Sequence record: MT150133.1
From: Enterobacteria phage vB_EcoM_IME540
Strand: one strand, 5' to 3'
Length of the DNA stretch: 64,000 nt
In this document: one piece after another, positions 53,785-54,240 of the stretch
How positions within the stretch are numbered: the first letter of the stretch is position 1
How the letters are laid out: each line of letters opens with the position of its first letter
The notes under the pieces: model-generated
Database searches by the model: none
What the model was told of the DNA's origin: nothing
What the model saw: the letters and a program-made list of their open reading frames with translations, nothing else
Translations under genes and position numbers: made by a program

Positions 53785-54240
53785 TTATTTTAGGTCTTCA
53801 GCCCAGTCGAGCTTCAAGGGTTCTTTATATTCTCTGTCTAAAACAACAGGAATCTGGACATCTCCACTAAAGCTAAGTGGTCCTACATTATAAGACAGGG
53901 TGATATGAGGGGTGTAATCATCAAAATCGTGCGTAGCACCTAAGGTACGAGCATACTGATGGCGGCATTTAAGATACTCTGAATTGAGAACCAAAACCAG
54001 GACAGGAGAATCACCGTGTTTCCATACTTCAAGATGTCCTGACGAAGCAACTTCAAAACTTCCGGATGCAACGGTGTATGGAACGTTGACTCTTGAATAG
54101 CAGATTGTAGAATGGAATTTTTCACGAGGAACTGGATTAGGAACCTTTAAAGTGCGCTGAAGATTTTCCAGCGCATCTAAAGTTAATTCAGAGAATTTTG
54201 CAGCAACGTATAGACCTTGAGCAAAATCTTCGGTTTTCAT
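53785..54240 (-). CDS. 57B: 2H-phosphoesterase, T4 57B/Acb1-like
   Basis: 151 aa with two H-x-T/S-x motifs (HSTI, HITL); syntenic with T4 57B just upstream of 57A. Confidence 0.65.

Follow-up and report, generated by a model that had tools for sequence, protein, structure and literature searches.

In the deposited genomes closest to that of Enterobacteria phage vB_EcoM_IME540, the gene that follows 57A is labeled 'RNA ligase' or 'hypothetical protein', and the question is what its product does. We analyzed a 64,000-nucleotide stretch of this phage (sequence record MT150133.1), hereafter the window, in which the gene occupies positions 53785..54240 on the minus strand. The first-pass annotation, made from the sequence alone, had described an ORF of 151 amino acids with two HxT/S motifs at these positions and proposed a 57B/Acb1-like 2H phosphoesterase, a candidate anti-CBASS nuclease. 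The ORF proved exact to the base, with an ATG start and 151 codons plus stop. It most probably encodes the Dhakavirus orthologue of T4 Acb1 (gp57B), an anti-CBASS 2H phosphodiesterase whose activity is predicted by homology; we put this reading at a probability of about 0.93.

A regular-expression scan of the translation returned two HxT/S motifs and no others: HSTI, which starts at residue 43, and HITL, which starts at residue 112. The first comprises H43-S44-T45 (54106..54114, minus strand, codons CAT-TCT-ACA) and corresponds to H44/T46 of T4 Acb1. The second comprises H112-I113-T114 (53899..53907, minus strand, codons CAT-ATC-ACC) and corresponds to H113/T115. Both positions were verified codon by codon on the window DNA, and their catalytic role is known from the T4 enzyme (PMC9117128). 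With 6 histidines and 21 serines plus threonines in the 151-residue protein, 0.82 such motifs are expected, and the probability of at least two is about 0.20, by Poisson statistics and by 20,000 shuffles of the same protein alike. Since about 20% of shuffles reach two motifs, we dropped the count as independent support for Acb1. Judged by these figures, two motifs say little by themselves, and the significance of the assignment comes from homology.

This homology extends over the full length of the protein. Residues 8-149 match the entire Pfam profile PF23474, 'Anti-CBASS protein Acb1' (profile positions 1-144 of 144), with E=8.9e-59 and a score of 197.8 bits, where the gathering cut-off is 27, and PHROG 755 is matched with E=2.1e-66. 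Among solved structures the best match is Acb1 of Erwinia phage FBB1 (7T26/7T27; E=1.2e-58), with 65% identity over 140 residues (9-148). T4 57B/Acb1 (NP_049750.1) is 85% identical over its full length. Using tblastn against 50,697 phage records, we found 1,470 with a homologue; Shigella phage PSD9 encodes a 100% identical protein, and T4, T6, RB32 and relatives encode proteins with 85.4% identity. An NCBIfam scan of the protein matched no family, RNA ligase models included. From the 65% identity over 140 residues to 7T26, which in practice guarantees a common fold, the protein is predicted to be a compact 2H phosphoesterase closed by a C-terminal lid. A single-sequence AlphaFold2 model of the protein gave a mean pLDDT of 39.5 and a pTM of 0.30, too low for the model to be of use.

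At the nucleotide level the gene is 72% identical to its T4 counterpart. Because synonymous sites are saturated (proportion of differences 0.76) while dN is only 0.15, the comparison indicates that the gene codes for a protein and that purifying selection on it is strong.

The active site was compared by aligning the window protein with T4 57B, translated from the T4 record, and with the FBB1 crystal sequence. In T4 Acb1 the active site is an HxT/HxT tetrad formed by H44, T46, H113 and T115; Y12, W74, F107 and W147 stack on the bases, E141 contacts adenine N6, and residues 145-152 form the C-terminal lid, whose function has been described in the FBB1 enzyme (Hobbs et al. 2022, PMC9117128). The tetrad of the window protein (H43, T45, H112 and T114) aligns exactly with the catalytic tetrad of both enzymes. 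Both catalytic histidine motifs whose loss on alignment would have counted against the first-pass annotation are thus kept, and its assignment is supported by this alignment together with the full-length Pfam match. All five published nucleobase contacts are present as well, namely Y11, W73, F106, W146 and E140. W146, equivalent to W147, lies in the segment of residues 144-151 (53788..53811, minus strand), which aligns with T4/FBB1 residues 145-152 and by homology would act as the lid. A wider alignment covered eight homologues from Escherichia, Erwinia, Acinetobacter, Aeromonas, Vibrio and Salicola phages, RB16 included. H43, T45, H112, T114, Y11 and E140 are among the columns invariant across these eight, down to 32% identity, and the residues conserved family-wide are those that hold the cyclic dinucleotide in the FBB1 co-crystal.

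The ORF, its family membership, the conserved catalytic and ligand-contacting residues, the synteny and the purifying selection are established directly, and activity as an enzyme, substrate range and anti-CBASS effect are predicted by homology to T4 and FBB1 Acb1. As a small, metal-independent 2H phosphoesterase, the protein would capture 3'-5'-linked cyclic di- and trinucleotides with at least one adenosine, such as 3'3'-cGAMP, cUA or cAAA, though not cGG or cA4. The ligand bases would be stacked between Y11, W73, F106 and W146, with E140 reading adenine N6. In the strained ligand, the adenosine 2'-OH would attack the adjacent 3'-5' bond on the 3' side of the adenosine, with H43, T45, H112 and T114 performing acid-base catalysis, and a cyclic phosphate intermediate would give way to the linear product. 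The CBASS second messenger would in this way be destroyed before effectors such as Cap4, Cap5 or CapV are activated, and abortive infection would be avoided. T4 Acb1 and nine further homologues have been shown to cleave adenosine-containing cyclic di- and trinucleotides independently of metal and to rescue the phage from CBASS, and all of the homologues assayed cleaved 3'3'-cGAMP and cAAA (Hobbs et al. 2022, PMC9117128). T4 acb1 is dispensable on K-12 and important for fitness on a CBASS-expressing host.

An Acb1-family enzyme could also have moved to other messengers, degrading cGG, 2',3'-c-di-AMP, cA4 or the Thoeris signal gcADPR instead of, or besides, the T4 substrates. The loop after W73 (residues 75-80) and residues 56-58 do differ from T4, and the nucleotide preference of an Acb1 bears on its detection by decoy-sensing systems such as Panoptes. 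However, every published base-contacting residue and the adenine-reading E140 are unchanged, and all nine additional homologues in the published assays kept their activity on 3'3'-cGAMP and cAAA (PMC9117128). The FBB1 enzyme is the more divergent one, with 65% identity and with F and Y at the positions of W73 and F106. We therefore regard such a shift as very improbable, and give equally little credence to a substrate range measurably unlike that of T4 Acb1 through the 75-80 loop and F42, for example in the activity on 2',3'-linked or guanine-only cyclic dinucleotides. Were it true, a shifted range would alter which CBASS types are defeated, or whether Panoptes-like decoy sensors detect the enzyme. 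Within the T4-like specificity that we favor, the changes in the 75-80 loop and at F42 could still make the quantitative substrate preference differ from that of T4.

Least probable, by a small step further, is a LigT-type 2'-5' RNA ligase or 2',3'-cyclic phosphodiesterase acting on cleaved tRNA ends: PHROG 755 is named 'RNA ligase', many RefSeq records label 57B likewise, tRNA genes lie 2-3 kb downstream of acb1 and Pfam 2_5_RNA_ligase2 (PF13563) gives a faint match (E=0.063), yet this match covers only residues 69-122 and is far under the cut-off (13.8 versus 27 bits, compared with 197.8 bits for Acb1), PDB searches with a profile and with the single sequence retrieved nothing but Acb1 entries and a portal domain resembling Acb1, neither LigT nor CPDase among them, no RNA ligase model of NCBIfam matched, and the family conserves its cyclic-dinucleotide-holding residues. 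With the Pfam match sub-threshold and LigT structures absent from the PDB searches, we rejected the RNA ligase/LigT identity. The name 'RNA ligase' stems from the resemblance of the 2H superfamily to LigT and not from an assay.

The portal domain retrieved from the PDB belongs to cyanophage Pam3. A match to an Acb1 profile (E=2.4e-8) lies in the C-terminal region of the Pam3 portal protein (PDB 8HDS chain A, approximately residues 497-610) and covers both HxT/S motifs (HVTIAYS and HISLS). This suggests that the Pam3 portal protein carries a fused Acb1-like 2H domain.

The genomic context of the T4 Acb1 orthologue is that of a T4-like E. coli/Shigella phage. The DNA of the 3-kb stretch around acb1 is 99% identical to Escherichia phages QL01 and LHE83 (Dhakavirus, Tevenvirinae), an identity that marks the window as a JS98/QL01-type T4-like phage genome of Dhakavirus. 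On the minus strand the order is gene 2, gene 3, gene 1, 57A, 57B/acb1, Ip8, Ip9, trna.4, trna.3 and trna.2, followed by tRNA-Met, a GIY-YIG homing endonuclease gene and tRNA-Arg. Gene 1 encodes a dNMP kinase (Pfam DNMK, E=5.6e-90), and the immediate upstream neighbor of acb1 is gene 57A (54240..54485, minus strand), which encodes the tail fibre assembly chaperone (Pfam GP57, E=1.8e-28). The order 3-1-57A-57B-Ip is that of T4, QL01 and LHE83 and recurs in distant T4-like phages. The '57B position' named in the first-pass annotation, directly downstream of 57A and gene 1, is therefore correct.

The TAA stop of 57A and the ATG of acb1 share one base (TAATG; junction sequence GAAGAAGAATAATGAAAACC), and this overlap suggests that the two genes are co-transcribed and translationally coupled. 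We found neither a consensus T4 late promoter (TATAAATA) nor a MotA-box middle promoter close upstream of 57A/acb1 on the minus strand between 53.7 and 58.5 kb; the sole TATAAATA late site on that strand of the interval, at 57218, lies upstream of gene 4. A generic sigma-70 promoter scan was at background, with 14 sites found and 12.8 expected. Because no consensus late or middle promoter was found close upstream, we infer the timing of acb1 expression in this phage from T4 only, where 57B/acb1 is reported to be predominantly middle/late.

Downstream, 12 nt past the stop codon of acb1, lies a T4-type early-promoter-like site (GTTTACA-N16-TACTAT; 53745..53773, minus strand), identified by consensus match only. 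Presumably the Ip8/Ip9 unit starts here, so that the site would mark where the acb1 unit ends on its 3' side. The window contains 15 such sites (GTTTAC-N-TAyWAT), every one on the minus strand, further examples being those at 53206, 50047, 41610, 39113, 33743, 29263 and 715, and many of the 15 have the extended block GATACTATAGACCTATCAA in common. In the copy that follows acb1, spacer and -10 region are complementary to each other (GGTCTATAG / CTATAGACC), with an RNA fold of -19.1 kcal/mol and z=-4.9. In the site at 53206 the two arms are altered in a matching way (GGGCTtTAG / CTATAGCCC). A possible role of the hairpin at these sites is, for instance, that of a terminator of the preceding unit that overlaps the next promoter.

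Directly downstream of acb1 lie the small internal-protein genes Ip8 (53483-53707) and Ip9 (53209-53481), both on the minus strand and named as annotated in QL01. Neither matched a Pfam family, and both products start with MK(T/S)YQEFI(T/A)E, a sequence that we take to resemble the leader by which T4 internal proteins are targeted to the capsid. The pair stands in place of T4 ipI, an anti-GmrSD inhibitor, and because of this position Ip8 and Ip9 may be injected anti-restriction proteins. Further along, the GIY-YIG / NUMOD3 homing endonuclease gene (51033-51698, minus strand) lies between tRNA-Arg (50953-51027) and tRNA-Met (51740-51810) and so separates the only two tRNA genes of the window, an arrangement that resembles that of SegB in the tRNA cluster of T4. 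A second endonuclease locus concerns the closest relative, QL01, which has a homing endonuclease gene of 650 bp between genes 3 and 2 (L002 4413-5063). It is lacking in the window (about 55830-55911) and in LHE83. Present in QL01 and missing from the other two, this gene is a presence/absence polymorphism of a mobile endonuclease.

These results bear mainly on annotation. The gene should be annotated as acb1 (anti-CBASS cyclic oligonucleotide phosphodiesterase). In emphasis the word 'candidate' was too cautious, as the protein is a routine orthologue of a characterized family, the structure and mechanism of which were published in 2022. Its identical counterpart is already public, and nothing about this known orthologue is unusual. 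For therapeutic or experimental use of the phage or its relatives, the assignment predicts resistance to CBASS signaling with cGAMP, cUA or cAAA.

With other 2H phosphoesterases (LigT 2'-5' RNA ligase, CPDase), Acb1 shares the two HxT/S motifs and the fold superfamily (Hobbs et al., PMC9117128). On the other hand, the size, the ligand-binding aromatics and the C-terminal lid are Acb1-specific, and sequence similarity to the LigT/CPDase family (Pfam 2_5_RNA_ligase2) is not significant. FBB1 Acb1, with structures of the apo form (PDB 7T26) and the complex with 3'3'-cGAMP (7T27), is much closer: the HxT/HxT tetrad, Y11, E140 and W146 are identical, and residues 9-148 align without large gaps. It differs in a one-residue insertion in the 75-80 loop and in having F and Y where both the window protein and T4 have W73 and F106.

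The closest characterized relative is T4 Acb1 (gp57B). The two proteins are equal in length within one residue, the start codon of the window gene corresponding to the second Met of T4 57B. They differ by 22 substitutions, found mostly in the N-terminal 8 residues, at residues 56-58 and in the 75-80 loop. This loop, directly after the base-stacking W73, reads KHGDSP in the window protein versus KTQDGS in T4, so that five of six positions are unlike, and residue 42, beside the catalytic H43, is F in the window protein and I in T4. The last 50 residues contain a single D/E change. In both genomes 57A directly precedes the gene, but its stop codon overlaps the acb1 start by 1 nt in the window and by 4 nt in T4, and the downstream neighbors are Ip8/Ip9 in the former and ipI in the latter. 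Overall, the catalytic tetrad and the Y/W/F/W/E ligand contacts are identical in the two enzymes.
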